Position numbers and translations under genes: made by a program
Notes under the pieces: model-generated
Seen by the model: only the letters and a program-made list of their open reading frames with translations
Told to the model about the DNA's origin: nothing
Database searches by the model: none
In this document: positions 44,216-61,529 of the stretch, piece by piece
Numbering within the stretch: the stretch's first letter is position 1
Layout of the letters: the number at the start of each line of letters is the position of its first letter
IMG/VR virus record: IMGVR_UViG_3300034061_006011
Reading direction: 5' to 3' (one strand)
DNA from: a virus
Taxonomy: Duplodnaviria; Caudoviricetes
DNA length: 64,000 nucleotides

Positions 44216-44221
44216 GGAAAT

Positions 44222-44821: not shown

Positions 44822-44824
44822 ATC

Positions 44825-45316: not shown

Positions 45317-45337
45317 TAAATGTAAACAAACCTTATC

Positions 45338-46435
45338 TTACAAATCTACTGAGACCATAGTGTTAAGTAAATCTTGTAGTTTATATTCAGCAATTTTAAC
45401 TACAGAATCATTGTCGCCATAACTTATTATAATTTTATCTTTTTTTCTTACCATTCCAATAGGGAATATACAAGCAATTTCATTTTGTTTTCTAAAAGGC
45501 GTTTCACATGCTGCATCTGCTGGCAAATAAGTTCTATTAGCACATTTTAAAACATTAAATGGAGGCTCACCAGAAAACAAATAAACTCCATTGTCATAGT
45601 GATGTTTGTGACTATGAATCATTGATGTATGAAAAGTGCCAAGATAATTACCATCATCTAATCTAACAGCATTAGTATTTCCTCTCAAATGAGCATCTAT
45701 CTTCCATGGAGATACCCAAGAACTTTCAAAAACTTTCTTGCATTTAAAGTTGTTATCTAATTCATAAATCCCATGAGGACAAACAGAGTTTATAATATAT
45801 ATTTTACCATTATGATCAAAAGGCATCCAATTTTTCTGCCTTGAATTCATATGAGCAGGACTTATTCTAAAAGATGTATCTTCAATAAATTTACCAGAAG
45901 ATCTGTTATCCATTATAACAGTTCCTCTCATGTATTCTGTTTCATACTTGTCGTTTTCAATATAAGAATAAATCATCAACAACTGATTATCTTTAGTCCA
46001 AATTAATCTTGGATCAGCACATTTGTTTATATTAAATTTATGATAAGACTTTTCAACCACCTTGTAATTTTTGTCTAATATACAACCGACAAACTTTAGT
46101 TCATTTGGGCGGTATACACAAACATAATGATCATCATCTAATTCGACTAAACCAGCATTGAATGAACCTTTTTCTGGGATATCAATCTTGATAAATTTTG
46201 CATTTACAGTTGTTAAAAAGTCTTTATCTGGTCTAGGTTTCTCAGGAACAATATTATTTTTATTTCTTCCACCAATAGATTTTACAATTTTTTGTCCACT
46301 GCCTAAAGAAGAAGAAGCTAGTAAATTATTTTTGATTCTACTAGCCATGTCTCCCTCATTTATTATTTTGTTTAAACTGTTAAGATTAATTACAGCAGCT
46401 CTTCTTCTTGATGCTACATCTTTTTTTTTGTCCAT
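45338..46435 (-). CDS. Five-bladed beta-propeller glycosidase-like protein (GH130/GH43-like)
   Basis: DPRL, QKNWMPF, RGNT, IFPIGM..IIISYGDND. Confidence 0.7.
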   Translation of the reverse strand: MDKKKDVASRRRAAVINLNSLNKIINEGDMASRIKNNLLASSSLGSGQKIVKSIGGRNKNNIVPEKPRPDKDFLTTVNAKFIKIDIPEKGSFNAGLVELDDDHYVCVYRPNELKFVGCILDKNYKVVEKSYHKFNINKCADPRLIWTKDNQLLMIYSYIENDKYETEYMRGTVIMDNRSSGKFIEDTSFRISPAHMNSRQKNWMPFDHNGKIYIINSVCPHGIYELDNNFKCKKVFESSWVSPWKIDAHLRGNTNAVRLDDGNYLGTFHTSMIHSHKHHYDNGVYLFSGEPPFNVLKCANRTYLPADAACETPFRKQNEIACIFPIGMVRKKDKIIISYGDNDSVVKIAEYKLQDLLNTMVSVDL

Positions 46436-46532: not shown

Positions 46533-47348
46533 TTAATCCTCTATTACTTTTCCTCGACAATATTCCAATGATTTTTTTATTTCTTTTTCTATTTTGGTAA
46601 AAGCAATATTAACTGTTTTCTCAACAATATTTTCAGTATGGTTAATAGGAGAATTTTCATTACAAAACTTAGTCAATTTTTTGAAATCAGGACGTTTTAA
46701 TTTACCACCACCATATAAATAAGATACAAAAATTTCATATGCCAATTCGTCGGCATCTTGTACAGTTTTATTTTCCACAGTTGATTTTGCAGATGCAAAA
46801 TTAAACAATAAAGGCAATATTTTGTTTGGTTTAAATTCTACTGAAGGAAATTCATTGTTGTCATAGAATTTATTCACTGTTGTAAAAGGTATTTTGCCAA
46901 ATGTCAGATGTGTAACTAAATTGAAAACAGCCATCTTAATTGTATCTTTAGAAGACGAATTTCCCATTTCAAACACTGCATGACCCATATTGTGCAAAAT
47001 CATCCAAGGAGTTAGTAAATCTCCTTGTGATGATTTCTTAAGAAAAACTATATCCTCTTTTGGAATTTTATCAAAAAAGTATTTTTGAATATCTATGTCA
47101 TCTCTGTTATATTCACCAAAGTATATATGAAAATTAAAGCCTTTGACTCTTGCCAATACTGTGTCTAAAACAGATATTATGCCACCACGAAGCTTGCTAC
47201 GACTACTAATAACAAGCGGTCTTTTATACATGCCAGAAATATATTCAGTATCTTTTTCATTAAGAGATGGCTTAAATTCATCTCCATGTGGCATCGTAAA
47301 GCCACCATGACTCGATAAAGCTTCCAAAAATTGATAAAAACTTTTCAT
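46533..47348 (-). CDS. CTS-tagged protein, zincin-like HxxxH; paralog of 58550..59713
   Basis: MKSFYQFLE; LTPWMILHNMGH; ends CRGKVIED. Confidence 0.7.
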   Translation of the reverse strand: MKSFYQFLEALSSHGGFTMPHGDEFKPSLNEKDTEYISGMYKRPLVISSRSKLRGGIISVLDTVLARVKGFNFHIYFGEYNRDDIDIQKYFFDKIPKEDIVFLKKSSQGDLLTPWMILHNMGHAVFEMGNSSSKDTIKMAVFNLVTHLTFGKIPFTTVNKFYDNNEFPSVEFKPNKILPLLFNFASAKSTVENKTVQDADELAYEIFVSYLYGGGKLKRPDFKKLTKFCNENSPINHTENIVEKTVNIAFTKIEKEIKKSLEYCRGKVIED

Positions 47349-47430
47349 TGTACCTATATAGAAAAACCCCGGCGAAATATTTTAACTTCTCTACTAGCAA
47401 TTTATTTAAAATTATCACTAAATATACACT

Positions 47431-47997
47431 ATGAATACTTTCAAACAATTTCTAGAATCTAGAAACGATGAACTAAGAAAAGCATTAGAAGACATTACAG
47501 CCAATTTCGCTAAATATGGATCGCCAGTTCCTCCACAACCAATCGATACAGATCCAGATCTCCTAAAATGGGAACCAGAACTATTAGAATTTAACCCAGA
47601 ATTAGTTAAATGGACTCACGAACTACTCCATAAACGCAAAGATCAAAACCAAACAGCAAAAGAATTTAAAAAATGGATCGAAATGAGAACCAGAGCTGAA
47701 ATGAGAACCAAAGCATCAGCACCACCTCCTCAACCAAAACCACCATTGCCACCAATAGAAGACTTTATCAAAGAATATAAGCCAAAAAGACATCCCGAAA
47801 AAGACTACGGAGGATATAACGATGGAATGAAATACACTGTAGTATCTACATCAAAATCTGTACCACATGAATTAAGACAACTAATAGCAAGATCACTAGG
47901 AGAAGAATGGTCATACCGTCAAGAAGTTGATAGAAAACCTTCAGATAACAAAAGAAGACACTATTACCTCGTTTATTGCCCAAGCCTAAGCTTGTAA
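47431..47997 (+). CDS. CTS-tagged hypothetical protein
   Basis: TAAATA then MNTFKQFLE. Confidence 0.7.
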   Translation: MNTFKQFLESRNDELRKALEDITANFAKYGSPVPPQPIDTDPDLLKWEPELLEFNPELVKWTHELLHKRKDQNQTAKEFKKWIEMRTRAEMRTKASAPPPQPKPPLPPIEDFIKEYKPKRHPEKDYGGYNDGMKYTVVSTSKSVPHELRQLIARSLGEEWSYRQEVDRKPSDNKRRHYYLVYCPSLSL

Positions 47998-48050
47998 AAT
48001 AAATTGACATAAATACTAATTTATAATATAAAAATAGAGGCAACTATGTC

Positions 48051-48551
48051 ATGATCGAAATCCCTATCACAAAAATCATGCTAGATTATGCAAACCACAA
48101 AGCATACCAACTCGGAAAATTAAAAAACTCAATAACAAAAGGCGAAGGTAATATCGCCGGATTCCTTGGCGAAATAGCAACAAAAATGTATCTAAACATA
48201 CCATATAACAAAGAAGAAAACTCTATACACTACGATATAATACACAACAACATAAGAATAGATGTTAAAACAAAAAGAACCACAACTACTATAAAACCAT
48301 ACTACGAAACCAGTATCGCCAACCTCAATACACTACAAGATTGTGACGATTATCTCTTTACAAGAGTGTATCAACCTACATATTCAAATATGCCAATATC
48401 AGTATTCCTGCTAGGTATCTACCCAAAAGACCTATACTTCGAAAAAGCTAGATTTCTATCCAAAGGAGATATTGACGGAGATAATAACTATATCGTAAAA
48501 AGCGACTGCTGGAATATGACTATTGATGAATTATACAATATTAACTACTAA
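48051..48551 (+). CDS. PD-(D/E)xK restriction-endonuclease-like nuclease
   Basis: GFLGEIA, YDI..RIDVKTK; TTGACA promoter and GAGG SD upstream. Confidence 0.7.
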   Translation: MIEIPITKIMLDYANHKAYQLGKLKNSITKGEGNIAGFLGEIATKMYLNIPYNKEENSIHYDIIHNNIRIDVKTKRTTTTIKPYYETSIANLNTLQDCDDYLFTRVYQPTYSNMPISVFLLGIYPKDLYFEKARFLSKGDIDGDNNYIVKSDCWNMTIDELYNINY

Positions 48552-48652
48552 TCATCACACAAATCTTCATTAAAAATTCATCCCATTATGCCCCAAACTT
48601 CCATAAATATTATATGGAAGAAATTAATCATATAGTGAATCATATCACAACC

Positions 48653-48775
48653 ATGAACCCAGCACTACCTAATTCTCAACAAGAATTAATTAGCACCCTG
48701 TCATTCATTGCTATCGTACCAGCAACCACCATGTTCATCCTCTACGCAATCTATGAAGAATATTTTCACTGCTAA
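48653..48775 (+). CDS. Small membrane peptide (40 aa)
   Basis: Manual translation MNPALP..FIAIVPATTMFILYAIY. Confidence 0.4.
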   Translation: MNPALPNSQQELISTLSFIAIVPATTMFILYAIYEEYFHC

Positions 48776-48787
48776 TCTAAATATACC

Positions 48788-49270
48788 ATGATCACCTTCA
48801 AACAATTTTTAGAAAATAAAGAAGACTTAGAACTACCACCAGAAATGGGAACCGCTCCAATACCAGATGGATGCGTAAGACTCTATCATCAAACAAATCC
48901 AGAAAATGTTCCATCAATTAAACAAAATGGCATAACTAAATCTTTGTCAACAGGAAAATCGCACCACGAACCATCTGTAATCTGGGCTGCAAGAAAACCA
49001 TTCTATAACATCAAATCAGACCTAGCTACTATCGAATTCTTCATCCCAGAAGAACAATTCTCACCACCAAGCTACGTCTTGGTAGACGTAATACCACCAG
49101 AACAAATTATAGGCATACACGAAAGATGGACCGACCTCGCAAGACACCTAATAAAAGATTACCCAGAACCAAATCAATCAAAAATAGACTTCTGGATGTC
49201 TATCGACGATAATTACAAAAAAGCTACCCAATTTTATGTCAACTATATGAAATCAATAGATAAATTGTAA
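48788..49270 (+). CDS. CTS-tagged ADP-ribosyltransferase-like (Tpt1/KptA-like) protein
   Basis: MITFKQFLE; LYHQT..NV.SIKQNGI; IPPEQI. Confidence 0.65.
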   Translation: MITFKQFLENKEDLELPPEMGTAPIPDGCVRLYHQTNPENVPSIKQNGITKSLSTGKSHHEPSVIWAARKPFYNIKSDLATIEFFIPEEQFSPPSYVLVDVIPPEQIIGIHERWTDLARHLIKDYPEPNQSKIDFWMSIDDNYKKATQFYVNYMKSIDKL

Positions 49271-49289
49271 ATATTATCATAAATACAAC

Positions 49290-50603
49290 ATGACCACTTT
49301 CAAACAATGGCTGTTAACCGAAGCAATAATTGACAAAGAAGAATTTATTAAAGAAATTAATTCTACAGAACATTCTTATTTACACTTACAACTGTCCCCT
49401 AATGGAAAAATATTAATTACAAGCCCTCATATTGAAACCAATATAATAAAAATTGGGAAAAAATATAAGTCAATCGAAGCAACAGGATCATTACAACCAT
49501 TATCTAAAAATTTTGCTAATGTAATTAACACAATTAAAAAAATATATCCTGAAATATTAAACTATGTCGTTTCCGAGACAGGAGTTGCAGGATTTAGAAA
49601 TCCTTCAACAAAACATAGAACAGTACAATATTGGCTTGACCAACAAAGAACAGAACCAAAAGTAAATCTACCAAAATATTTTTATCACGGCACCTCTACA
49701 AACTTATATAATATGTTCATCAAAGAACAAGGATTGGTCCCAAGACAAATATCTGGAAGTTCTGGATCTTATGGTGCATCATCAGTCAGAGCCTTATCAA
49801 GAGGAATGTTTAATTATCTTACAATTCATCCTGATTATGCTACAAGAGAAGCAGCTACACAAGCAGCAAAAAATCATGGCGGTCTTCCACTCATATTAAA
49901 AATAAATTCATATGCAATAGATCCAACAAGACTTTTTCCCGATGAAGACGCAAGAGCAGAAACTTGGGAAGAATCCATGCACAAGATAGGAACAGTTGCC
50001 TATAAAGGCATTATCCAAAACTCAAGCATCATGCCATATGAAATTAGCAAAGATATCAATAGATTAAAATGGTTGCCTTATGAAGAAACACCAACAATGA
50101 ATCATCCCACATACGAAAAATTAATTACAACAAAAGAACATAGAAACAAAGATTCCGTATTCTTTGCACTTTATGATAAAGAAATAATTGATAGAAAAGG
50201 TAGCTTACTCAAACCAATAACCAGCGAAGAATTTAACGAAATAATAAAGAATGCAAAATGGGCAACTAATGCATGGTTAATTTGTGAATCAATAAACGAA
50301 GGTATATTGGAAAAGACAAGAAATTCTGTTATCAGCAGAAGTAATTTCGATAAAGAAGCACAAAAAATTGTACTTGATTTGTATAAGCATGATATTTTTG
50401 ATGAATATCTGCAAATGAAAAGCGAATACATTAGAATATATGATTACGCAATACAAGTAATAATAAAATATGCTAAATACCTTGGCAAAAATTCATGGAA
50501 AGAAATAGATCAAAAATTAAGAACTGTTTACTCAAGAAACAATAGAGATCAAAATGACCACTTATATTCCACTGAAGCTAAAGAAATATTAGGAATTAAA
50601 TAG
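49290..50603 (+). CDS. CTS-tagged ADP-ribosyltransferase-like (Tpt1/KptA-like) protein
   Basis: MTTFKQWLLTE; FYHGTS..IKEQGLVP; YLT..A...A; PLILKI; AYKGII. Confidence 0.72.
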   Translation: MTTFKQWLLTEAIIDKEEFIKEINSTEHSYLHLQLSPNGKILITSPHIETNIIKIGKKYKSIEATGSLQPLSKNFANVINTIKKIYPEILNYVVSETGVAGFRNPSTKHRTVQYWLDQQRTEPKVNLPKYFYHGTSTNLYNMFIKEQGLVPRQISGSSGSYGASSVRALSRGMFNYLTIHPDYATREAATQAAKNHGGLPLILKINSYAIDPTRLFPDEDARAETWEESMHKIGTVAYKGIIQNSSIMPYEISKDINRLKWLPYEETPTMNHPTYEKLITTKEHRNKDSVFFALYDKEIIDRKGSLLKPITSEEFNEIIKNAKWATNAWLICESINEGILEKTRNSVISRSNFDKEAQKIVLDLYKHDIFDEYLQMKSEYIRIYDYAIQVIIKYAKYLGKNSWKEIDQKLRTVYSRNNRDQNDHLYSTEAKEILGIK

Positions 50604-50715
50604 AAAGATTACCCGCAACTCCCGAAGAAGCAAGTATGTGGAAACTCAAAACTCTTAACCACCCATTCCATTTCAAATTCATTTCAGAAAATCCACAAGT
50701 AATCATAAATAATAC

Positions 50716-51867
50716 ATGACTAATTTTAAACAATGGCTACTTACAGAAGAAATTGACCGTAATGGCAAAACGGCAATAGTTTATCATAGAACCGACGAAA
50801 TTGAAAATGCACTTTCAATACTCCAATATGGATCTAAATCCGATTTTGATAAAGACCATCCTATGTTATCCGATTTTGATAAAGACAATCAACCGGGGCA
50901 GATGTTCTTCGTCTTTGATCTTGAAAGCACTATGGGAAAGGCAGAAACTTACGGAAATGCTATAATAAAATTCAAAGTCACTGATCTTGATAAATATCTT
51001 GTATTCCATACAAATATGGCTAAAAGAATTCATGGAGAGAATTACAAATTAAGTGATCAACTTAGAGAATTCAAAATTTCACAAAAATTCACACAAAATT
51101 ATCTTGATGATATAGACGAAAAACTAGTCACAAATCAATATAACCACATCACTGACGTTTATTCTTTTTTAATTGAAAACGAATGGATAAAAAGTAAAAT
51201 AAAAGGCGTTATTTATTGGGGATATGATGATGGATATTGCTTGCTTAAATTCCGTCCAGTAAATGACGGAACAATTACTATGATCGGATATGCAACCGAC
51301 CCACACAAAAATTATGAAAAAGATGGGATAATAAAAAGCAAAAATAGAATGAAAGATTTAGAAAAATCTCAAAATTGGACAACATCAACAGATATAGCCA
51401 AATTAAAATCTATTGATAAAACCCCATACGGACAAAGAGAAAAATATATTAAAATAAAAGAAAAAAATCCAACTGTCTTGGAAATAATCAAAAAACTAAA
51501 ACTAGAGAAAAATATTGAAAAAGATGAATTATTAAAAATAATGAATTCTGTTAAAAATAAAAACGCATTTGCAAAAATAATTATACAAAATAAAAAAGAA
51601 TTAACAGTTGATGATATTTCATTGTTAATGAAATATTCAACAGACTCATGGGAAATTTGTTCATTTATACTTAAGAATAGACCAGAATTGTCTGATTTTA
51701 TTTCTAGAGCTATGTTTCCTAAAACCTACAGACCAATGGACACTCAAACCAGCAAGGTATGGTCTGATTATACATCAGATCCAGACAGAAGACCAATAGA
51801 CACTAAAACCGGCGAAAGACCAGAATTGTCTGATTTTATTTCTAGAGCTATGCGTTCCCGTAAATAA
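50716..51867 (+). CDS. CTS-tagged PARP/ART-like protein, paralog of 54638..55720, with internal duplications
   Basis: MTNFKQWLLTE; VYHRT; YGNAIIKFKVTDLDKYLVFH. Confidence 0.68.
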   Translation: MTNFKQWLLTEEIDRNGKTAIVYHRTDEIENALSILQYGSKSDFDKDHPMLSDFDKDNQPGQMFFVFDLESTMGKAETYGNAIIKFKVTDLDKYLVFHTNMAKRIHGENYKLSDQLREFKISQKFTQNYLDDIDEKLVTNQYNHITDVYSFLIENEWIKSKIKGVIYWGYDDGYCLLKFRPVNDGTITMIGYATDPHKNYEKDGIIKSKNRMKDLEKSQNWTTSTDIAKLKSIDKTPYGQREKYIKIKEKNPTVLEIIKKLKLEKNIEKDELLKIMNSVKNKNAFAKIIIQNKKELTVDDISLLMKYSTDSWEICSFILKNRPELSDFISRAMFPKTYRPMDTQTSKVWSDYTSDPDRRPIDTKTGERPELSDFISRAMRSRK

Positions 51868-51910
51868 AATTTATTTAACAATTAATTAAATATACACCAA
51901 TAAATACAAC

Positions 51911-52561
51911 ATGATCAACTTTTATCAATTCCTTGAATTTGCTAGAGAAATCATCCCAATAGGTACTGTTACTGACCCAAATGTCAGAAAATCGCTGGCA
52001 GGAAGAAGAATTAATTCCGCTGATGCGAAAAAATATTTGGATCAAGGTTTCGTTTATGTCTATAGATTTGAAGGATTCGCACCACGTCTCAGGAAGTATT
52101 CAAGAGGAGTTTGGTATTTTATAGGAGATGAAAATGATACTAAACTTGATCTGGGCAAATGCTTATTAGCATGGAATAAAGTACATGCACTTCACCTATT
52201 AGGATTTCCCAACAATTATATATTGTTTTATATTAATCCTGCAAATTTTTTACGACTTGCTGCTGACCAAAATTTAAACAATAGATATATAAATCAAGTA
52301 ATAAAATCACACTTTAATGAAAATGGACCTACCAAAGATTTCAATTCTTATGATAAATTAGATTTTCCCATGACTGGTATCGCAAAAAGTCAGGGATATG
52401 ATACTATCATGTTAGTTGCAGAAGGTGATTCCAAATCAGCAGAATTAATCGATCTTAGAACAGAAGTAACTCCTAAATCATTAGAAGATTATTTAAAAGA
52501 AATAGATGTAGATGAAGTTATGAAAGATTTAAAGAAAAAAAAGGGGAAAAAATCTACATGA
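51911..52561 (+). CDS. CTS-tagged protein, possibly ART-like
   Basis: MINFYQFLE; VYRFEG, GVWYF, AKSQGYDTI. Confidence 0.55.
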   Translation: MINFYQFLEFAREIIPIGTVTDPNVRKSLAGRRINSADAKKYLDQGFVYVYRFEGFAPRLRKYSRGVWYFIGDENDTKLDLGKCLLAWNKVHALHLLGFPNNYILFYINPANFLRLAADQNLNNRYINQVIKSHFNENGPTKDFNSYDKLDFPMTGIAKSQGYDTIMLVAEGDSKSAELIDLRTEVTPKSLEDYLKEIDVDEVMKDLKKKKGKKST

Positions 52562-52617
52562 TCACTTTCAAATAATCACCGTAACAACTCCAGTTAATTC
52601 TAATAAAATTAATATAA

Positions 52618-53301
52618 TTATTCTGAATCTGAGGAATAAGTGCCTATACCATAGTACTCTTTAATCTTATCAATCGCATCATTGTAAAGAATTGTTGCAT
52701 AAGAAGGACGAATATTCAATTCTGCCGCAATATCTTTATTCATTACATCCTCAGACCTGCGAGTCAAAATAATCTTCTGCCTTGGACTCAAATTGGGAAC
52801 CCTTAACAAATCCTCTAATCCCATCTTTTCAGACGATGGATCATCAGCAAATGAACTAGGCTCATGAATAGTACCAACTGTGTTAAAACTCACATTTCCT
52901 TTCTCACTCTTCCAATTATTACGCCTTATAATGTCCACAACAGATGCTCTAATCATGTTTGTAATCAAACCACCAATTAAATTGTAATTCAATTTTCTAT
53001 TTCTTATTTTTTTTTCAACCGTATTGTGAACCCTCAGCAAAGTCCTGTTGATAATGTCCTCTTCATCAACAATGTTTCTTATAACCATTCTACGCTGATA
53101 AGGCAAAAGACTATTCCTAAAACAATTTCTTATATTATTGTCCAATCTATCATAAAACTTTTCCTTCTTACCCAAATTATCAGAATACCATAAAAATAAA
53201 TTCTCCAAATTCCTCTTACACTTAAAAATTATCTCGGCTGCTTCTGGATCTACAGATTCATGAAAATCTCTATTAATAACATATTCAAAAAATGTTTTCA
53301 T
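52618..53301 (-). CDS. CTS-tagged sigma70/ECF-like sigma factor
   Basis: Region 2-like EEDIINRTLLRV..LITNMIRASVVDIIRR; region 4 LSPRQKII..NKDIAAELNI..A..LYNDAIDKIK. Confidence 0.78.
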   Translation of the reverse strand: MKTFFEYVINRDFHESVDPEAAEIIFKCKRNLENLFLWYSDNLGKKEKFYDRLDNNIRNCFRNSLLPYQRRMVIRNIVDEEDIINRTLLRVHNTVEKKIRNRKLNYNLIGGLITNMIRASVVDIIRRNNWKSEKGNVSFNTVGTIHEPSSFADDPSSEKMGLEDLLRVPNLSPRQKIILTRRSEDVMNKDIAAELNIRPSYATILYNDAIDKIKEYYGIGTYSSDSE

Positions 53302-53381
53302 AATAAACTATATATTCCACTAAACAAAAAAATCACACCACATCTCTATAAATTAAATCCACAAATAAGCATAAATACTAC

Positions 53382-53762
53382 ATGATCACTTTCAAACAAT
53401 TCCTAGAATCCTACAGAATGGAAGACCAAACCTTCTCCGATAACAACGGCACCTACTCCGTACCACAAATAGTCAACTACGCAACAGAAAACAAAACAAT
53501 AAAAGAAATGCCATTAGAACCCCTACTACATAACCTAGAACCATCCCCACACGAAGAAGGTGATGAACTACCCGGTCATCCAGAATTTATCAAAAGAACT
53601 GAACTAACTGACCTCAAATACCCAATCATTATCGTCAAATACCCAGACGGTCTCTTTATCGCTGACGGTGTCCATAGACTAGCAAAAGCTCACTCCCTAA
53701 ACCAACAAACTATCAAAGCTTATGTCCTAGACCAAAATGAATTAGAACAATTCAAAATGTAA
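53382..53762 (+). CDS. CTS-tagged ParB/Srx-like domain protein
   Basis: MITFKQFLE; DLKYPII..IADGVHRLAKA. Confidence 0.8.
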   Translation: MITFKQFLESYRMEDQTFSDNNGTYSVPQIVNYATENKTIKEMPLEPLLHNLEPSPHEEGDELPGHPEFIKRTELTDLKYPIIIVKYPDGLFIADGVHRLAKAHSLNQQTIKAYVLDQNELEQFKM

Positions 53763-53768
53763 CATTCT

Positions 53769-54563
53769 TCAAGACTCAATCCAATCCTGTCCATTATGAA
53801 CTAAAATTTTAGTCACAGGTAAAGAACTTTCTCCTGTGTACTTCAAAGCCATAGGATTCTTTCCATAATTATTCTGGAAAAACCAAGATTCCAGTTTTTT
53901 ATGCAATTCTGGATTCCGATCCTGATGTCCATAATAAAAAGGAGCTATATTAGATGCTGCTCCTGCACTGTAATAAGGGTTATCATTCAACAAAGGATCA
54001 CGAACACTTCCTATTCTACCGGGAAATTTACCATACAAACTTCTGGCTACAGGATTCTTCTTGATAGTCGAAAATGGAATTGGCTCGGCATCAATACCAG
54101 TCAACTTTTCTCCAACTTCATCCTTTGACAAATATTCTTTTGTCTTGTCTGTTAAATTAACATCTCCCAACTTGTTCAGCTTTCCAACTCTTTTAGAAGC
54201 ATAAGTAAGAATGTCCTTCGCATGATTCTCAATGTCCAAATCCCATTCACCAAAATCAATATTTGGAACATCTATTACAACAACTATAGGATTACCCTCT
54301 AAAGAACCCTTCAAACCATACAATTCTCTGTTCATACGAGCCAAAGCATGAGTTTTTGCGCTTTCATCCGATGTCCAAAGAAATAAACCACCTCCCTGAC
54401 CATGACCGTATCCCGAAGACCTAGCACCATCCCTCTTAAATGAATTCAATACCTCATCGTTCTTTCCAGAACTAGTTCCATGATAAAACCTGAAAGGACC
54501 ATTAATAACAATATCATGTGAATAACCTTCATCATGTCGAAGCCACTCTTTGAAATTATCCAT
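53769..54563 (-). CDS. CTS-tagged PARP/ART-like protein
   Basis: MDNFKEWL; FYHGTS; GQGGGLFLWTS..A..HA; PIVVVI. Confidence 0.65.
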   Translation of the reverse strand: MDNFKEWLRHDEGYSHDIVINGPFRFYHGTSSGKNDEVLNSFKRDGARSSGYGHGQGGGLFLWTSDESAKTHALARMNRELYGLKGSLEGNPIVVVIDVPNIDFGEWDLDIENHAKDILTYASKRVGKLNKLGDVNLTDKTKEYLSKDEVGEKLTGIDAEPIPFSTIKKNPVARSLYGKFPGRIGSVRDPLLNDNPYYSAGAASNIAPFYYGHQDRNPELHKKLESWFFQNNYGKNPMALKYTGESSLPVTKILVHNGQDWIES

Positions 54564-54590
54564 AATGTTTATATATAAAAAATCCAGAAA

Positions 54591-54632
54591 AATATCAACC
54601 CTCTACACAAATTAAATCAACATACATAAATA
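54591..54632 (+). repeat. 42-bp intergenic late-promoter repeat, copy 1
   Basis: AATATCAACCCTCTACACAAATTAAATCAACATACATAAATA, identical at 55719..55760. Confidence 0.92.
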
Positions 54633-54637
54633 TAACC

Positions 54638-55720
54638 ATGAACTTTAAACAATGGCTCATCAACGAAGAAATTTATCCCAATAACACCGCTACGGTTTAT
54701 CATAGGACTGAACACGCTAGCAATATTGAAAGAATTCTACAATCTGGATACAAAACCGGTGGTGGTCAAATGTATGGTAATGGTCTTTACACTACCATCT
54801 CACTAGAAAGCCAATTTAAAAGTTATATGAGCATATATGGTAATTATGTTATCAAGTTTCATGTCACCGATCTTGATAAATATCTTGTATTCCACCCCAA
54901 TATGGCTAAAAAAATTCATGGTCAAAATTACAAAATCAGTGATCAATTGAAAAATTTTAATTTAGCAGGAAGCTTTACAGAAGATAAACTTAGACAATAC
55001 GATGAAGCACAAGAAAAAACCGGAACTGTTAATGGTAATAATGCAGTTAAATTTTGTAGAGAAAATATTGGGATACTGCATACAATAAAAGGCATTATTT
55101 ATTATGGAACAAATGATGGCTATTGTTTAGTAAAATATAAACCAGTGAACGATAATACAATAAAAATGCTTGGTTACGCAGAAGCACAAGTTGAAGATAT
55201 CAATAAAATGAACGAACTGTACGCAAATAAAGGATGGAATACATCAACAGATAAAGCTAACATCAAAGATATACAAGATTTAGAACCAGATCAAAGAGAA
55301 AAATACGCAACAATTACTCCAAATAATTTGAAATCTGTATCAGAAATTGTAACCCTTATAAAGGATGAAAAATCTAATTTTGAAGAAATATTCGAATACA
55401 TAAAGAGAAATAAATTAATAGATCAAAAATACAAAAATACTATTGTAAGACTTATATTAAAATATAAAAAAGAAATATCCGTGGAACAATTGCTAGAACT
55501 AGTAAAATACAAAAAAGAAATCTCCATAGAAGAATTAATTGAACTAATAAATTACAAAAAAGAAATCTCCATTAAACAATTACTAGAACTAATGAAATAT
55601 ACAAACATGTCCACATCAGAAAGAGAAAAATTTATTGCAACTTACTTACCAGAAAAAGTAAATTCAATTAAACAATATGTTAACGATCCATCAAACTTTA
55701 CTTCAACACATGATGATTAA
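54638..55720 (+). CDS. CTS-tagged PARP/ART-like protein with C-terminal 15-aa tandem repeats
   Basis: MNFKQWLINE; VYHRT; YGNGLYTT; KYKKEIS.EQLLEL-like x3. Confidence 0.75.
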   Translation: MNFKQWLINEEIYPNNTATVYHRTEHASNIERILQSGYKTGGGQMYGNGLYTTISLESQFKSYMSIYGNYVIKFHVTDLDKYLVFHPNMAKKIHGQNYKISDQLKNFNLAGSFTEDKLRQYDEAQEKTGTVNGNNAVKFCRENIGILHTIKGIIYYGTNDGYCLVKYKPVNDNTIKMLGYAEAQVEDINKMNELYANKGWNTSTDKANIKDIQDLEPDQREKYATITPNNLKSVSEIVTLIKDEKSNFEEIFEYIKRNKLIDQKYKNTIVRLILKYKKEISVEQLLELVKYKKEISIEELIELINYKKEISIKQLLELMKYTNMSTSEREKFIATYLPEKVNSIKQYVNDPSNFTSTHDD

Positions 55721-55760
55721 TATCAACCCTCTACACAAATTAAATCAACATACATAAATA
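55719..55760 (+). repeat. Late-promoter repeat, copy 2
   Basis: Identical to 54591..54632. Confidence 0.92.
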
Positions 55761-55766
55761 CACATC

Positions 55767-56048
55767 ATGAAACTTAAAGATAAAGCTACCATCAAAACAA
55801 ATTTTCCAGAAGCTGACTTTTGGATCGTTCGCAGAGGATCAGAATCAGACGTTGGTAAACCTACCAAAAAATTTAGCGAATATCACATAGGAATTAAAGT
55901 TACATCTGATGACCTATTACCAGATTATCTCTACTACGCAATGACATATCTCTACAACCAAGGATACTATAAACCATTAGCCACAGGAATGTCAAGCTTG
56001 GTAAACATACAAGTTAAAGATGTTAAAAATATTAAAATGGGCGAATAA
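55767..56048 (+). CDS. Small protein resembling a type I R-M specificity (TRD) half-domain
   Basis: LLPDYLYYAM..L...G..S.VNI...DVKNI pattern. Confidence 0.5.
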   Translation: MKLKDKATIKTNFPEADFWIVRRGSESDVGKPTKKFSEYHIGIKVTSDDLLPDYLYYAMTYLYNQGYYKPLATGMSSLVNIQVKDVKNIKMGE

Positions 56049-56061
56049 TAAAACCACACTA

Positions 56062-56111
56062 CCTCTACACAAATTAAATCAACATACATAAATATAACCA
56101 TGAACTTTAAA
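56062..56111 (+). repeat. Late-promoter repeat, copy 3, extending through ATGAACTTTAAA
   Basis: Identical to 54600..54649, including the first four CTS codons. Confidence 0.9.
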
Positions 56112-56693
56112 GAATTTATTTATAATGAAACATCAACAGCTAGCCTAGACCTCGTTGGCTATAACTGCCGTCAAATAGAACCAGACACAGATCCACACTT
56201 CGGTCAAGTACATGTCTCTGGTCCCAGCGAAGAAGACATGAGTGCTGAAGTATTCGTCAAAAGATATATCGAAAATATCATAGAAGAAAAGGACTACTAC
56301 GAATTCATAAAAGAATATGGAGACGATCCATATGAGAAAAATCAATCACTCACAACAGAACGCCAACAATGGATGGTAAAAGCTGCCAATTTTCTTAACA
56401 AAAAAGGATACAGAATGCTATTCTGCGGCGATAAACCAGAAAAAATCTATGGAGAAAATTGCTACGCAGTCTATATCGATAAAACAAAAATTATTAATAT
56501 CACACGTCGTGACTATTACCCAATGACAGACGAAATAGACGAAATCACAGAAGAAACTATCATCACTTGGAAAATACCATACAACCCAATCCTCGTAAAT
56601 ATCAAAACATTACCAACAAAATTACCAAAACCAATTCCACTCATCAGACCAAGAAGACGATCAGATCGAAATGGAGATCACGAATTCCTATAA
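56100..56693 (+). CDS. CTS-tagged hypothetical protein
   Basis: MNFKEFIYNE behind the repeat. Confidence 0.7.
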   Translation: MNFKEFIYNETSTASLDLVGYNCRQIEPDTDPHFGQVHVSGPSEEDMSAEVFVKRYIENIIEEKDYYEFIKEYGDDPYEKNQSLTTERQQWMVKAANFLNKKGYRMLFCGDKPEKIYGENCYAVYIDKTKIINITRRDYYPMTDEIDEITEETIITWKIPYNPILVNIKTLPTKLPKPIPLIRPRRRSDRNGDHEFL

Positions 56694-56721
56694 CCCAATA
56701 CCAGAAATATTACACACCACT

Positions 56722-56755
56722 TCTACACAAATTAAATCAACATACATAAATACAC
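56722..56755 (+). repeat. Late-promoter repeat, copy 4, with no downstream ATG (empty)
   Basis: TCTACACAAATTAAATCAACATACATAAATACAC followed by CTGAG. Confidence 0.88.
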
Positions 56756-56773
56756 CTGAGCAAATCATAACAC

Positions 56774-57682
56774 CTAATAAATCCGTTCTCCTCTGACGGA
56801 CTCACTCGTCCTCTGCTTCCATTGGTCCCTTAAAACATCTCTTCGCATCATAGCTGCCTTGGAAAACGGCTCAACAGCCAAATGTGCAGCCGGAAGGTCA
56901 AATGCCTGCTGCGGCGTTTCTCCCACCAATAAGTCCTTCACAGTCATAGTTGTTACTGATTTCCCACCCTTATCAAATGTATTTACAAAAATAGTTGTAT
57001 TCATAGTAGCAGGCTGATACAGGAGAGCTTCATCATCACTAGTTGACCTGACACGCTGATTCTTGGCACAAATAGCCTTAAGGCAATTTATCAATTTCTC
57101 CTTGTCATACGAATACATGTCGAAATTGTTGGCACCCCTCACAAGTATCATACCAGCATCCTTCATCGCCTCTACTTCAAGCTGCTCTTCTCCATGACCC
57201 ATAGCTATCTTCTGCAAAATTGATGAAGCCGATCCCAAAGCCTCATCCAACCCTTTAGCCATTATTTGCTCAATATAATTTTCACATTCTTTATCATTAT
57301 TATACACATCAGAGGATATCATGTCGCTAATTACCGAATACATCAAACCAAAATTTTCATGATTGATGTATGTCTTATCGGAAGGAGGAAAAAAGAAACC
57401 GGAAGAATGAACATGACCACGCCTGACATCTCTCTCTTCTCTCTCAAGCTTTTCCTTGTTAACACAAGGATTGTTCCTAAAATTAGTATAAAAATCAAAT
57501 AAAGCTTTTTTGTATTTCGTGACATAATATTGCGATATTAAATCTGTATGTCCTCTGGATCTGTCAGATCTTATGGCATTCTGCAACTTACCATTTGGAT
57601 AATATATCCATTCGCCCTTGATGCAGGACTCTCCTTCACTCTCATTTTCTCTCATCAAAACCCAATCCATAAAACGAATCAT
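56774..57682 (-). CDS. CTS-tagged hypothetical protein
   Basis: MIRFMDWVLMRENE; TAAATA upstream. Confidence 0.68.
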   Translation of the reverse strand: MIRFMDWVLMRENESEGESCIKGEWIYYPNGKLQNAIRSDRSRGHTDLISQYYVTKYKKALFDFYTNFRNNPCVNKEKLEREERDVRRGHVHSSGFFFPPSDKTYINHENFGLMYSVISDMISSDVYNNDKECENYIEQIMAKGLDEALGSASSILQKIAMGHGEEQLEVEAMKDAGMILVRGANNFDMYSYDKEKLINCLKAICAKNQRVRSTSDDEALLYQPATMNTTIFVNTFDKGGKSVTTMTVKDLLVGETPQQAFDLPAAHLAVEPFSKAAMMRRDVLRDQWKQRTSESVRGERIY

Positions 57683-57731
57683 ATAATCTCCAATATTTAA
57701 TTACCCATGTATATTTATTCCAAATAATTAA

Positions 57732-57941
57732 AAACCTCACCCAATAGAACAACTAAAAGCCAAAAGAATTAAAATAACCATCAACCCCGGAGATTGGGTC
57801 TGCCTCACAAGAAATTATGCAAAAGAACACGGAGAAGGAAGCCTGAATAACGTATTCAAAATAATATCCAAAACAGTACCAGCTAAACACCTATTCACTA
57901 ACGGTGACATGCTACAAGAATTCGGTTACGACCCTTCTTAA
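57732..57941 (+). pseudogene. Start-less fragment of an ART-like phage domain
   Basis: Manual translation INPGDWVCLTRNYAKEHG..ISKTVPAKHLFTNGDMLQEFGYDP; in-frame TAA at 57729 and no upstream ATG. Confidence 0.55.
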
Positions 57942-57948
57942 TACACAT

Positions 57949-58545
57949 TTATACCGCACGAATATTTTGTAAAAATTTCTTCTTTTCCAAAGGACTCGAC
58001 TCCATTGTCAAATTCTCTGGAATAGATGGATAACCCTTCGGAACATATTCCCTTTCATATATATCTCTCCTCATCCATTGATTTATTTTTACCGAAACAT
58101 ATGAAGGAAATAAACCCTTGATGGCAAAAATATCATACGCATCTCTGCGACCTTCAGGATTCGTTATTATTCCAGTAACAGGATTGGCAGTTTTTGTTTT
58201 TGACGGACTCCATATCAGATAATCAGGATTATTATTTTTGATAAACTCACCAATTGCATAAAAAACAGCACCAATCACCTTAATACCAACTCCACGCCTC
58301 TCATCCTTAGAATTGTTACTTCCCCTTTTAAACTCAACTTCATAACTATTCGATTTCAACTCCTCAAACCAGACCAAATAACACCACTTGGGACTACAAT
58401 CATCACCCTCAACATCGAAGTAAAACAAATCATTGCGACTCCACTCCGAATGCTTCGGCTTACCTCCATCAGTTCCCACAATAGTCATCTCGCTTAACCA
58501 CAAATAATCATCTGTTCGGTCCAAATATTCAAAAAATGTTTTCAT
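57949..58545 (-). CDS. CTS-tagged hypothetical protein
   Basis: Start reassigned to 58545 (MKTFFEYL); N-terminal DNA identical to that of the sigma gene. Confidence 0.68.
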   Translation of the reverse strand: MKTFFEYLDRTDDYLWLSEMTIVGTDGGKPKHSEWSRNDLFYFDVEGDDCSPKWCYLVWFEELKSNSYEVEFKRGSNNSKDERRGVGIKVIGAVFYAIGEFIKNNNPDYLIWSPSKTKTANPVTGIITNPEGRRDAYDIFAIKGLFPSYVSVKINQWMRRDIYEREYVPKGYPSIPENLTMESSPLEKKKFLQNIRAV

Positions 58546-58549
58546 AATA

Positions 58550-59713
58550 TCAACTGCCCCTTCTATCCATAATAACTTCACCCCTGCAACCATCTATAAT
58601 TGAATGGTAAGAGGCTGCAATTTCATTAAATCTACTGTCCAAACCATCTAGCAAACTATCAAAATTTTCCGGTTCCCTACCTGCAAATAATTTTTGCAAC
58701 TTTACTTTGTAATTAGGATCAACTATCGGCAACCTTCCTCCTTGAGTTAACCAAAATACAAATATCTCCATTTGTAACTCCCCAGAATTTAAAGCCTGTT
58801 GTAAATCCATTTTCGATTTTATAAATTGACCCGATCTGGCTCCAGATATTATCTTAAACGCTTCCTTTATACTCCAAATACTAGGAAACAAAATTGTTAG
58901 AAAATCTATAGTTATATTCCCTATTCTTTTTTGTATTTCTTCATCAGTATACAAAGCTTCTTTATTACCATCTTTCAACACATCAATCCAACCTTGATAA
59001 AACTGTGGATACATCGGACTAACCAAAAAGTCTTTCAAAAGTTCCTTAACTAAATTTTCAGCTCTAACACAATCCTCCTGAATTTTATTCATGTATGTGT
59101 TGCCATAATCTGCTGTACGAGCAAGTGACCCTCTATCAAAAATACCATGTGCAAATGTGTGAAGAATCAACCAAGGAGTCAAAGGATCAGCAGCAGTACT
59201 CGTCTTCATGTAAACAATATCATTCTCACTTATGTTCATTCCGTCACGACCATAAAAATAATTTTTTAATTGATTGTAGTTGTCTTTAGTTAACTCTTTA
59301 CTTATGGTAAATCCTGACTTAATATCATCTTTAGGATAACCAAAATAGAAATGTATGTTCACAATACCAAGCTTCTCTAACTTCTTTTCAAGACCAGACA
59401 TTATCAATTTAAAATTTCTAGGATTCTCTATAATTTTCTTGTCACCACCTTTAAAATTGTGATCCCAACCAGAACTACCATATCGACTACCAACATCATC
59501 AGAATCAATATCCTTGTCTGGAAAATGCTTTTTATACTCATCACCATAATTTGAACCAAATTGAGAAGACCAACCATAATCATTAGACGGCGGCTGATTT
59601 TGCAAACCCTGTGAAAGATTATGCTGAACCGGATAACCTCCAACTGACCCTAAAACTTCATCAATTGTAAATTTATTGTCATTAATCAAAAACCACTCTT
59701 TAAATCTTTTCAT
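58550..59713 (-). CDS. CTS-tagged protein, zincin-like HxxxH; paralog of 46533..47348
   Basis: MKRFKEWF; LTPWLILHTFAH; ends CRGEVIMD. Confidence 0.72.
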   Translation of the reverse strand: MKRFKEWFLINDNKFTIDEVLGSVGGYPVQHNLSQGLQNQPPSNDYGWSSQFGSNYGDEYKKHFPDKDIDSDDVGSRYGSSGWDHNFKGGDKKIIENPRNFKLIMSGLEKKLEKLGIVNIHFYFGYPKDDIKSGFTISKELTKDNYNQLKNYFYGRDGMNISENDIVYMKTSTAADPLTPWLILHTFAHGIFDRGSLARTADYGNTYMNKIQEDCVRAENLVKELLKDFLVSPMYPQFYQGWIDVLKDGNKEALYTDEEIQKRIGNITIDFLTILFPSIWSIKEAFKIISGARSGQFIKSKMDLQQALNSGELQMEIFVFWLTQGGRLPIVDPNYKVKLQKLFAGREPENFDSLLDGLDSRFNEIAASYHSIIDGCRGEVIMDRRGS

Positions 59714-59851
59714 AATACATATCTATCCCACAAAAACAAAAACCCTACCACCCCCAAAAAAATACCCCGGCGCATTTTTTTAAACCCCATACCTTCATAT
59801 ATTTTTAACCTATTACCACATATACACAATACCATGTCACAACATTTCTGT

Positions 59852-59975
59852 AAAATGAAATAAAATTATTCCAGATTTTTAGAAAATGAAATAAAATTAT
59901 TCCAGATTTTTAGAAAATGAAATAAAATTATTCCAAAATTTTAGAAAATGAAATAAAATTATTCCAAAATTTTTT
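59852..59975. repeat. AT-rich 31-bp tandem repeat x4
   Basis: AAAATGAAATAAAATTATTCCAGATTTTTAG units at 59852, 59883, 59914, 59945. Confidence 0.92.
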
Positions 59976-60156
59976 AAATAAATCAAGATGAACAACAAAA
60001 GGGAGCCATGATGGCGGGGGGATACCCCCCTACCCCACTCTCTTTTGGGGAATGTCAAGTGCAATTATGTTATGGCAACTTTGTAACATAATTAAAAAAC
60101 CCCTATAAAACAAGTGCGGCGCAATTGTGTTATCACGCCGCCTGCCTATTCTGTTA

Positions 60157-60327
60157 TCACCTTACCCACTTCATAGTTATGTTAGCCTGAACCTTTGGCT
60201 TATCCCCCTCCCATTCAGTATTGATATTCACTTCTGTTATCTGCCTTGTCGGCTTGCGGTCATGGTGTTGAACGTGTTGGCAACCTACCGACAACACCAC
60301 AACCAATAACATAATTAACCTTACCAT
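60157..60327 (-). CDS. Small lipoprotein-like protein
   Basis: Start 60327 (AAGGA SD); hydrophobic leader ending in lipobox-like LSVGC. Confidence 0.6.
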   Translation of the reverse strand: MVRLIMLLVVVLSVGCQHVQHHDRKPTRQITEVNINTEWEGDKPKVQANITMKWVR

Positions 60328-60470
60328 GGTCATCATCCTTGAATGCCGATTGATCCCCACACTACTATTATCGGCATTCAACCAACCAGACTTGAACCAA
60401 CCTAAAGATTCTTCCTAACCACATTTTAGTATCCTAAGTTTGTCCGCATTGTCTCAATTGAAATAACAAT

Positions 60471-60503
60471 AAAAAAACCCCCTTCTCCGGGTGGAGAAGG
60501 GGG
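60471..60503 (-). terminator. Rho-independent terminator
   Basis: CCCCCTTCTCC / GGAGAAGGGGG stem plus A7 (U-run on minus strand). Confidence 0.9.
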
Positions 60504-60524
60504 CTGTTGATTATTGTTAGCCTA

Positions 60525-61190
60525 TCATTCAGATAACAGAATCATTTCTAATTCCCCCCCACGGATTCCCATTGAAGGGAATCCCTTGGCTGAATAAATT
60601 CTTTCGATTGCGTCTTCGGACGTTAGCCCGAAGACGTTTTGCAATTGTTGGAACAGGCACTTCAAATGGCGATCCAGTGCCAACTTTGTTATCACAATAA
60701 CAAAGTTTTCAATGGTGCCGTTAACACGGCACGCCGTCCCAGTGGGACGGTTGATTTCAAAATTAACCGTCCCAAGACGGTTCACATCCCACTTATAACG
60801 CCCACTGGCGGATTGATCCGCCGGTGTTGGTAGTGGGTGTTGACAATTACAATAAGTATCCTGATCCGCATTGAAATAGTCCGCCCAATCAATGGGCGTT
60901 CCAATGCACGCCCAAAGATGCCCAAACGAATGGGCGATTTTACGGGACACCCGCAATTGTGCGGGTGTCATTTTTGAAGTCTCAAAACTGAATTCATCGG
61001 GATACCGAAGTGGCTCGCCACTCCAGTGGCGTGAACAGTCTCGCTTGCCCCGTAGGGCAAGCGATGCGATTTCAGCGGCATTGGGTGCCGCAGCGTTCTT
61101 CCTGATCCAGTGGTTGAGATACGCAACACGACCGGTTGCGGTTGCGGTTGCGGTTGCGGTTGCGGTGGCGGTGGCGGTTGAAATGGTCAT
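60525..61190 (-). CDS. Early hypothetical protein with (TA)n N-terminus
   Basis: Start reassigned to 61190 (GAGAG SD after structured leader). Confidence 0.65.
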   Translation of the reverse strand: MTISTATATATATATATATGRVAYLNHWIRKNAAAPNAAEIASLALRGKRDCSRHWSGEPLRYPDEFSFETSKMTPAQLRVSRKIAHSFGHLWACIGTPIDWADYFNADQDTYCNCQHPLPTPADQSASGRYKWDVNRLGTVNFEINRPTGTACRVNGTIENFVIVITKLALDRHLKCLFQQLQNVFGLTSEDAIERIYSAKGFPSMGIRGGELEMILLSE

Positions 61191-61269
61191 GTTCGATACT
61201 CTCATGCCCGTTTCAGGTACGGGTGGACCTTGGCTAAGGTGAACCACAACATGCGGTTCACCTACGACT

Positions 61270-61297
61270 ATCTTAACATCATCCCCAACTAGGTCAA
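61270..61297 (-). promoter_or_regulatory. Sigma70-type early promoter
   Basis: TTGACC-16-TAAGAT with TG extension. Confidence 0.75.
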
Positions 61298-61496: not shown

Positions 61497-61529
61497 AAAA
61501 AAACCCCCTTGACTTGTCTGTCAAGGGGG
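61497..61529 (-). terminator. Rho-independent terminator
   Basis: CCCCCTTGAC / GTCAAGGGGG stem plus A-run; same at 61950. Confidence 0.9.

Follow-up and report, generated by a model that had tools for sequence, protein, structure and literature searches.

A common N-terminal tag in the gene island

In a 64-kb stretch of DNA (the window; IMG/VR record IMGVR_UViG_3300034061_006011, Caudoviricetes), which has a GC content of about 33% and forms part of a very large uncultured phage, we observed an island of genes at 46533-59713 whose products begin with one short peptide tag that closely resembles the head-targeting sequence of the phage T4 internal proteins (IPs). Because this near-T4 tag stands on mostly unrelated genes, and because the island varies from strain to strain, the phage probably packages a large and changeable set of enzymes and injects them. 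We consider it likely that the tag is a T4-type capsid-targeting propeptide carried by a hypervariable set of cargo genes. Genes are designated below by their first coordinate and are listed in Table 1.

Fourteen of the 17 open reading frames (ORFs) of the island, nine on the plus and five on the minus strand, start with the pattern M-x(1-2)-F-x-[Q/E/D]-[F/W/Y]-[L/I/V], and all 14 N-termini quoted in a preliminary description of this DNA were found at the ORFs concerned. The regular expression ^M.{1,2}[FY].[QED][FWY][LIVF] was run on every ATG in all six frames, with the reversed sequence as control; it matched 21 times in the window and not once in the control. Of the 21 matches, 20 begin ORFs of 60 aa or more, and 18 coincide with the first ATG in the frame. 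Among the 82 called proteins the core motif lies inside the first five residues of 21, while 18,951 residues contain it 8 times at internal positions, from which about 0.14 N-terminal matches would be expected. At N-termini the motif is therefore enriched about 150-fold over internal positions; a test of enrichment had been named as a check in the preliminary description. The most informative columns are the Phe at position 4 (4.4 bits, 22 of 22 tags) and the aromatic residue at position 7 (3.7 bits, F/W/Y in 22 of 22), followed by Q/E/D at position 6 (2.5 bits) and L/I/V at position 8 (2.4 bits, 21 of 22).

The T4 prohead protease gp21 cuts after Glu in a hydrophobic-x-Glu context. Among tagged proteins, 17 of 20 have such a site ending at residues 9-19, as against 20 of 61 untagged ones (33%; p = 6e-5); in the island 13 of the 14 tagged proteins have it. 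A gp21 homologue at 24918-25562, already pointed out in the preliminary description, was borne out by its Peptidase_S77 match and by its alignment to the T4 gp21 structure 5JBL (E-values in Table 1). In the T4 genome (NC_000866) IPII and IPIII start with MKTYQEFIAE, as had been stated, and IPI with MKTFKEFT. The regular expression retrieved from T4 only IPII, IPIII and a 54-aa hypothetical protein, gp61.1 (18966-19130), whose start MKTFKEFIKE is a near-perfect capsid targeting sequence (CTS) of the IP type with Glu at position 10; IPI fails at position 8 only. In IPIII the first 10 residues are sufficient for incorporation, and suppressor mutagenesis placed targeting mainly at residues 4 and 7 (Tyr4 and Phe7) and processing at residues 8 and 10 (PMC9026906). 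The four conserved positions of the tag, namely 4, 7, 8 and a subsequent Glu, are the four so mapped for targeting and processing in T4 IPIII.

The codons behind these residues vary. Position 8 is written with all six Leu codons (TTA, TTG, CTT, CTC, CTA and CTG) as well as with ATT, GTT and TTT, F4 with both TTT and TTC, and position 7 changes among Phe, Trp and Tyr. Homologues of 53769 with 47-96% identity keep F4, W7 and E12 while the adjacent residues vary, and the tag is also present on four genes with Shine-Dalgarno-type starts that lack the TAAATA box described below (5356, 41168, 27443 and 56774). These three observations argue that selection acts on the peptide; the tag is conserved at the amino-acid level.

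A TAAATA box, a recurring cassette and strain-level turnover

The hexamer TAAATA ends 4-6 nt before the start codon in 16 of the 82 genes, as against about 0.24 expected. Nine of these genes are tagged and seven are untagged (2384, 17524, 22051, 30422, 31252, 48614 and 55767). A looser form of the box precedes 15 of 21 tagged and 8 of 61 untagged genes (p = 1.3e-6, the events not being independent). No Shine-Dalgarno sites were seen at genes with an abutting box, and such sites are present at the capsid gene, the gene in the scaffold position and 25564. The same layout of box and ATG recurs in the nearest record, the 595-kb uncultured phage LR756511.1, whose capsid protein is 76% identical. 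Since the box abuts the start and no Shine-Dalgarno site accompanies it, leaderless or near-leaderless mRNAs are suggested. The core of T4 late promoters is TATAAATA, which the box resembles, and this suggests by analogy that transcripts may start at or next to the ATG from a T4-late-like promoter. Sigma-70-like sites (59 against 67.6 expected) and terminator-like elements (9 against 6.5 expected) were not enriched in the island. As to the combined promoter and tag system that the preliminary description had proposed, the box does exist, though untagged genes share it, and its action as a promoter and the timing are inferred.

From the box to about the ninth codon the sequence forms a cassette of 35-56 nt, copies of which in front of unrelated genes share 64-100% identity (repeat families D3, D8, D11, D15 and D16). 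The 57949 tag begins at an internal ATG at 58545, 4 nt past the stop of the upstream gene, and the first about 24 nt of this gene are identical to the start of the sigma-like gene 52618. The orphan start M-I-T-F-K-stop at 52558-52575 is likely a scar of recombination.

A 45-kb contig of another sample (L043), from a nearly identical strain, gave a view of how the island changes. It carries orthologues of 53769 (96%), 53382 (89%), 48788 (71%) and 46533 (98% identical), and between these anchors lie about 11 different genes, nearly all of which start with MITFKQFLES, MKSFKEYLKE, MKTFREYLEG or similar and most of which have a TAAATA-type box directly before the ATG. Long blocks of DNA homology between window and contig stop at the cassette. 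For example, window 48562-48807 matches L043 10748-10993 at 89% up to the 20th coding nucleotide, the end of the tag, beyond which the bodies are unrelated. In Logan contigs of four lake metagenomes, contig ends fall at most gene starts of the island, and one run holds a well-supported variant that lacks 48788, with a joint of 48774 to 49276 and 99 nt on its shorter side. Joints with a side shorter than about 33 nt can arise from the cassette repeats and were for that reason left out of the tally of structural variants. This turnover resembles the shuffling mediated by promoter early stem-loops (PeSLs) in phages RB49 and phi1.

A repeat of this kind raises the question whether the peptide is a by-product of DNA, that is, whether a mobile promoter and start cassette spreads and drags along its first 8-9 codons, the peptide itself being without function. 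The near-identical cassettes before unrelated genes and the strain breakpoints within them are in keeping with this, and, because the box abuts the ATG, the first codons would form the 5' end of the mRNA. Yet the residues are kept through different codons (nine at position 8, and F, W or Y at position 7), the tag occurs on the four Shine-Dalgarno genes without the box, the untagged genes 48614 and 55767 use the same box, and the 595-kb relative, cyanophage S-SRM01, T4 and metagenomic homologues show the peptide pattern again, encoded by other DNA. We regard such a by-product as very unlikely.

Predicted cargo proteins of the island

When the tag was trimmed and the 14 tagged island proteins were compared with one another, only two pairs of paralogues appeared, 46533/58550 and 50716/54638; the cargo bodies are mostly unrelated. 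Pure paralogy, meaning one diverged family with the N-terminus as its best-conserved segment, was rejected on this count. The two pairs and the ART-fold (ADP-ribosyltransferase-fold) domain shared by 49290 and 53769 would fit it, but no other pair is similar beyond the tag, the tagged bodies have different folds (sigma-70, ParB/Srx, ART, NUDIX, DEDD exonuclease and flavodoxin-like), and homologous domains occur elsewhere without the tag, so that we give common descent of the whole set hardly any credence.

Pfam searches, relaxed thresholds included, gave nothing meaningful for most island proteins. The sigma factor announced in the preliminary description has some profile support. TIGR02937 aligns with 52618 at 3e-6 from position 18 to position 164 of its 165, with 27 bits against a cut-off of 42.9 bits, and there are matches to phrog_1740 (1.4e-7) and to a helix-turn-helix of the GerE type (4.4e-4). 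The ParB-like protein named beside it, 53382, is more weakly indicated by phrog_33277 (Table 1). PDB sequence searches with these two proteins returned no matches.

The same description had listed ARTs, and an ART fold is supported for two proteins. The central domain of 49290 has 216 relatives among 1.84 billion representatives; members of its alignment match the Pfam families Tpt1 and PARP, and the domain profile matches Tpt1 (2.5e-4) and DarT (0.02) in the PDB. An AlphaFold2 (AF2) model of residues 115-265 reached a pLDDT of 88.7, and all of its top Foldseek matches in the PDB are ART-fold enzymes, with TM-scores of 0.43-0.51. In the domain alignment H19 and E105 are nearly invariant and G20, T21, R38, Y62, D104 and D106 invariant. 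An ART fold is thus supported for 49290 by profile and by modelling. For 53769 it is supported by a profile relation to the 49290 domain, and its neighbours in a language-model atlas are ART families only; its AF2 model, from an alignment of 8 sequences, had a pLDDT of 38 and was not used, and a PDB profile search with the same alignment gave chance-level matches only. The profile relation was not significant for 48788, 50716 and 54638 (hhalign 8.5%, 0.1% and 2.3%), in which only a YH[QR]T-type motif is visible, and the zincin-like call comes solely from the language-model neighbours of 46533 (ATLF/M90, about 0.90); these remaining ART calls and the zincin call are leads only.

The tag was found on 37 of 150 representatives of the ART-fold domain, namely on 18 of the closest 25 and on 2 of the most distant 25, and some relatives of the 49290 domain are domains of untagged proteins of 2,000-3,700 aa. 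Likewise the family profiles of the NUDIX, DEDD exonuclease and FMN-reductase bodies encoded outside the island start past the tag. Since profiles start after the tag and ART-fold relatives occur with and without it, the tag is a portable add-on.

Two of the island genes also carry repeats at their 3' ends. The C-terminus of 50716 contains an exact 36-nt duplication (51679-51714 and 51817-51852) encoding RPELSDFISRAM, and that of 54638 has three 45-nt units at 55455-55589 encoding KKEIS-type helical repeats.

Tags outside the island and in other genomes

The preliminary description had counted about 10 further tags elsewhere in the window, which is roughly right: there are six matches to the regular expression (4844, 5356, 20889, 27443, 34685 and 41168), two small ORFs and a few looser cases. 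The tag density of 0.3 per kb in the window is about 6 times that of LR756511.1 and more than 10 times that of T4. LR756511.1 has 43 matches against 7 in the control, of which about 28 are convincing (for instance MKTFNQWLE and MKTFSEWLE), and many of its tagged genes have a TAAATA- or TATATA-type box directly before the ATG. About 3 kb from its capsid gene, at 520135 on the minus strand, lies a gene for a 1,076-aa protein with the tag MEFREWFRSAE.

The freshwater cyanophage S-SRM01 has 12 matches against 1 in the control. This cultured phage (MW015081.1) has about 7 tagged gene starts, such as 47292, 64285, 126582, 157606, 165428 and 176324, with tags like MKSFQEFL, MITFRQFL, MKSFKQFI and MKTFQQFI, and it could offer a culturable system for tests of the tag. 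No excess of the pattern was noticed in LR756508.1, Xoo-sp13 and S-SSM5.

Head module and genome context

The window encodes a T4-type head module that includes the capsid protein, portal, terminase and the presumed tag-cleaving protease (Table 1). A family search with the protein in the gp22 position, 24035, gave no match. Between the portal and protease genes lies 25564-27342 (minus strand), which encodes a protein of 592 aa that contains a stretch rich in Lys and, in the first 450 residues, 18 [LIV]-x-E sites, has no family match and is 33% identical to its counterpart in LR756511.1. The small core proteins gp67 and gp68 occupy the corresponding place in T4, and the product may be an enlarged component of the prohead core. 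The portal intein lies near the N-terminus, at about aa 120-336.

An identical capsid protein was found on contigs of up to 0.2-1 Mb, and island DNA in at least 20 lake-water metagenome runs, none of which was an RNA run. Megablast of the island against 50,697 phage records gave no DNA match, and tblastn of its proteins against LR756511.1 gave no homologues. Searches of the window for tRNA genes and Rfam families found none.

To the left of the island, at 41709-46435, is a glycan-modification cluster with a Methyltransf_24 methyltransferase, a GT2 glycosyltransferase, a sulfotransferase and a GH130-like phosphorylase. To the right, 59813-64000 is repeat-rich with 45% GC. It starts with five 31-nt tandem repeats (59813-59998) and further contains seven copies of an 81-93-nt element, repeated hairpin terminators, eight iteron-like copies of a 26-nt repeat containing GTTAGCCGATAACG at a spacing of 28 or 45-47 nt, and two ORFs with the common N-terminus VGEPHVVVHL. 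Contig depth at 60828-61428 is about 20-fold above the flanks, as for an element common to many lake genomes.

Table 1. Tagged genes, head genes and cassette copies in the 64-kb window (SD, Shine-Dalgarno; functions of cargo genes are predictions)
Position	Strand	Feature	Basis
4844-5347	+	Tag-like start MILFNEYV; orthologue in the 595-kb relative tagged MLEFKEFI	
5356-6213	+	Tagged DEDD (DnaQ-like) exonuclease; N-terminal extension of about 24 aa carries the tag	
18825-18977	-	Small ORF MNIEFKKWLL, divergent from the next	
18994-19254	+	Small ORF MNLNFKKWL	
20889-21752	+	Tagged FMN-reductase/flavodoxin-like protein; 18-aa tag extension	
22550-24007	-	gp23-type major capsid protein	PF07068 8e-87
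24035-24916	-	Glu-rich helical protein, 293 aa, at gp22 (scaffold) position; presumed docking partner of the tag	Position between protease and capsid genes
24918-25562	-	gp21-type prohead protease (Peptidase_S77), presumed tag-cleaving enzyme	Pfam 7.7e-26; PDB 5JBL 1.6e-15
27443-27775	+	Tagged small gene MQTFSDFI, 110 aa	
27795-30308	-	gp20-type portal with intein	Portal_T4 2.5e-73; Intein_splicing 2.4e-13
34685-34909	+	Tagged small gene MFSFKEFLNLQE, 74 aa; TAAATA box 6 nt upstream	
38606-40372		T4-type large terminase (TerL)	
41168-41593	-	Tagged NUDIX hydrolase; no Glu after tag	
46533-47348	-	Tagged MKSFYQFLE, 271 aa; paralogue of 58550-59713; possible zincin-like fold (lead only)	BLASTP 2.6e-14, tag trimmed
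47431-47997	+	Tagged MNTFKQFLE, 188 aa, Pro-rich, no family match	
48051-48551	+	Untagged, 166 aa; SD-like site; TAAATA box 35 nt upstream	
48614-48775	+	Untagged small ORF, 53 aa; TAAATA box 4 nt before ATG	
48788-49270	+	Tagged MITFKQFLE, 160 aa; YHQT motif, ART relation not significant	hhalign 8.5%
49290-50603	+	Tagged MTTFKQWLLTE, 437 aa; ART-fold domain at about aa 115-265	phrog_13493; profile; AF2 and Foldseek
50716-51867	+	Tagged MTNFKQWLLTE, 383 aa; paralogue of 54638-55720	36% identity, 5.6e-57
51911-52561	+	Tagged MINFYQFLE, 216 aa	
52558-52575	+	Orphan tag start M-I-T-F-K-stop overlapping the 51911 stop; no TAAATA box	Repeat family D15
52618-53301	-	Tagged MKTFFEYV...FHE, 227 aa; sigma-70/ECF-like, regions 2 and 4	TIGR02937, phrog_1740, GerE
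53382-53762	+	Tagged MITFKQFLE, 126 aa; ParB/Srx-like, DGVHR motif	phrog_17560 4e-12; phrog_33277 5e-5
53769-54563	-	Tagged MDNFKEWLRHDE, 264 aa; related to 49290 ART-fold domain	hhalign 94%, 1.1e-7
54602-54644	+	Cassette example, ending in TAAATA box, then ATG and tag	D8, D11
54638-55720	+	Tagged MNFKQWLINE, 360 aa; three 45-nt C-terminal repeats	D14
55730-55772		Further cassette copy	
55767-56048	+	Untagged, 93 aa; upstream cassette as in tagged neighbours	D8, D11
56064-56106		Further cassette copy	
56100-56693	+	Tagged MNFKEFIYNE, 197 aa	
56722-56764		Orphan cassette copy	
56774-57682	-	Tagged MIRFMDWVLMRE, 302 aa; SD-like start	
57949-58545	-	Tagged MKTFFEYL...LSE, 198 aa counted from tag ATG	
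58550-59713	-	Tagged MKRFKEWF...IDE, 387 aa; paralogue of 46533	

Proposed mechanism and its weighing

We propose that the tag would act as an amphipathic propeptide of a few residues. Through its aromatic residues at positions 4 and 7 it would dock freshly synthesised proteins to the scaffolding core of the prohead, and the gp21-type protease would then remove it after the Glu at residues 9-19. The mature cargo would be retained in the head and enter the host together with the DNA. The island would serve as a hypervariable store of cargo, with an ECF-like sigma factor, a ParB/Srx-like protein, at least two ART-fold proteins and others. The box 4-6 nt before most cargo ATGs would give leaderless or near-leaderless mRNAs, and box, ATG and tag codons together would make up a repeated cassette of about 40 nt in which homologous recombination swaps, deletes and adds cargo genes between strains. 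Docking, cleavage, retention in the head and injection we infer from T4, and the timing of expression and a role of the cargo in host takeover or counter-defence are equally extrapolated.

The capsid-targeting reading, as first put forward in the preliminary description, is partly supported. It came out well in all its computable parts, namely the T4 positions, the Glu site, the protease and head, the conservation of the peptide, its modularity and the cassette. A complex prediction of the gp22-position protein with residues 1-40 of 47431 scored 0.00, which speaks neither for nor against binding and gives no verdict. Several points weigh against a T4-type propeptide. The NUDIX gene 41168 and 4844 have no nearby Glu, and where the Glu is present it is commonly at position 9 (F-L-E), T4 having I-A-E at 8-10. 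The NUDIX, DEDD exonuclease and FMN-reductase bodies could equally act in the producing cell. The capsid, portal and scaffold genes have Shine-Dalgarno-type starts without an abutting box, and BLAST did not find a homologue of T4 gp55 in the 595-kb relative, for which reason the term late promoter stays an analogy. Because the cassette spreads by recombination, the tags of the 14 island genes are not independent events. The motif alone is also no proof of packaging, because gp61.1, not known as a head protein, has a CTS-like start; no record of its packaging was found in the literature searched. Lastly, the island proteins (14.6-50.6 kDa, pI 5.0-9.0) are unlike the small basic T4 IPs. As T4 packages foreign proteins through the CTS (PMC9026906), this mismatch concerns its three IPs and not the CTS mechanism.

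Some of these points would also suit a real peptide signal that is read by another partner, such as a modifying enzyme, a chaperone, a protease (the tag being a degron or zymogen lock), a tail or baseplate site or another cellular location. The similar start of gp61.1 and the ordinary enzymes among the tagged bodies (NUDIX, exonuclease, FMN reductase) lend it something. It seems unlikely to us all the same, as the conserved positions coincide with those mapped in T4 for head targeting and gp21 processing, the Glu site comes after the tag, the tag-carrying genomes all have T4-type heads, and no candidate gene for a dedicated partner was seen beside the island.

Taking the capsid-targeting propeptide further, we put forward only tentatively that a lineage of huge freshwater phages may load dozens of proteins per genome, an ECF-like sigma factor and several ART-fold enzymes among them, through one tag and inject them before phage gene expression, and that box, ATG and tag may act as an integron-type site for the exchange of cargo among co-occurring strains, giving a fast-evolving arsenal far beyond what is documented for T4. 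Should the tag function as it does in T4, the proteins injected by uncultured huge phages could be listed straight from their N-termini. Candidates for host takeover and anti-defence would be among them, the majority belonging to no known family. Delivery of a sigma factor in the virion, if true, would redirect the host RNA polymerase at entry, and we know of no such case from studied phages. A promoter-like box and an address tag fused in one recombining cassette would explain how the arsenal diversifies between strains. The tag is near enough to that of T4 to be tested in T4 itself.

Comparison with known systems

The tagged proteins are most like the T4 IPs, with which they share the start at Met1, the aromatic residues at positions 4 and 7, the aliphatic residue at 8 and the Glu thereafter, on unrelated bodies and in a phage with a gp21-type protease and a gp22/gp23-type head; the IPI start MKTFKEF fits the tag family. 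IP repertoires also vary among T4 relatives and act against host defence (IPI* against GmrSD). The differences lie in scale and detail. The window has 21 tag starts over 64 kb and the island 14 over 13 kb, as against three IPs and gp61.1 in the whole of T4, and the cargo is of 15-51 kDa, of mixed charge and often enzyme-like, whereas the T4 IPs are small and basic (about 8-20 kDa). The Glu is mostly at position 9, the proteins are known from their genes alone, and the TAAATA box abuts the ATG where T4 IP genes have a leader with a Shine-Dalgarno site.

T4 packages the ART Alt as well as anti-restriction IPs (PMC9026906, PMC3012670). Like Alt, the proteins predicted here would include an ART-fold enzyme in the head that loses its propeptide after a Glu and is delivered with the DNA. 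Unlike them, Alt has the propeptide MELITELFDE, which is not an IP-type CTS (gp24, gp67 and gp68 of T4 have other propeptides too), and by sequence profile the ART-fold domains here are similar to the Tpt1/PARP/DarT (H-Y-E type) side of the superfamily. The CTS has already been suggested as a route by which T4-like phages package varied proteins (PMC9026906), so that the sequence and this use of it are in print. What appears to be new is the dense, strain-variable tagged island and the tag-bearing recombination cassette. Neither was met in the literature on 'capsid targeting sequence' (T4, P1, P22 and phiKZ-like phages), a search which left many subscription papers outside and is not proof of absence.

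The phiKZ-like giants SPN3US and 201phi2-1 likewise have many proteins inside the head which a prohead protease related to that of T4 cleaves after Glu and which are delivered to the host, a virion RNA polymerase among those of phiKZ-like phages (PMC5694885). Their propeptides, in contrast, are long (often more than 100 aa) without a single short consensus, and their capsid lineage and genome organisation differ. The polyvalent proteins of phages and conjugative elements, of which Iyer et al. are said to have written in 2017, reportedly carry diverse effector domains, ART included, that are thought to travel with the incoming DNA. The 49290 ART-fold domain is similarly found inside proteins of 2,000-3,700 aa, but the effectors here are encoded by individual genes, every one of which bears a tag, and not as domains of a giant fusion.

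The closest parallel to the turnover is in the PeSLs of RB49 and phi1, which are short, conserved repeats with a promoter, flanking orphan genes in hyperplastic regions. Homologous recombination takes place at them, and through it genes are inserted, deleted and replaced between near-identical phages (Arbiol et al. 2010, PMC2839356). Here too conserved intergenic repeats stand at orphan genes, and strain differences break within the repeats. PeSLs consist of a sigma-70-like early promoter with a stem-loop terminator and end before the ATG, whereas the repeat here has TAAATA and enters the coding sequence, and therefore the recombining unit also carries the address tag of the protein.

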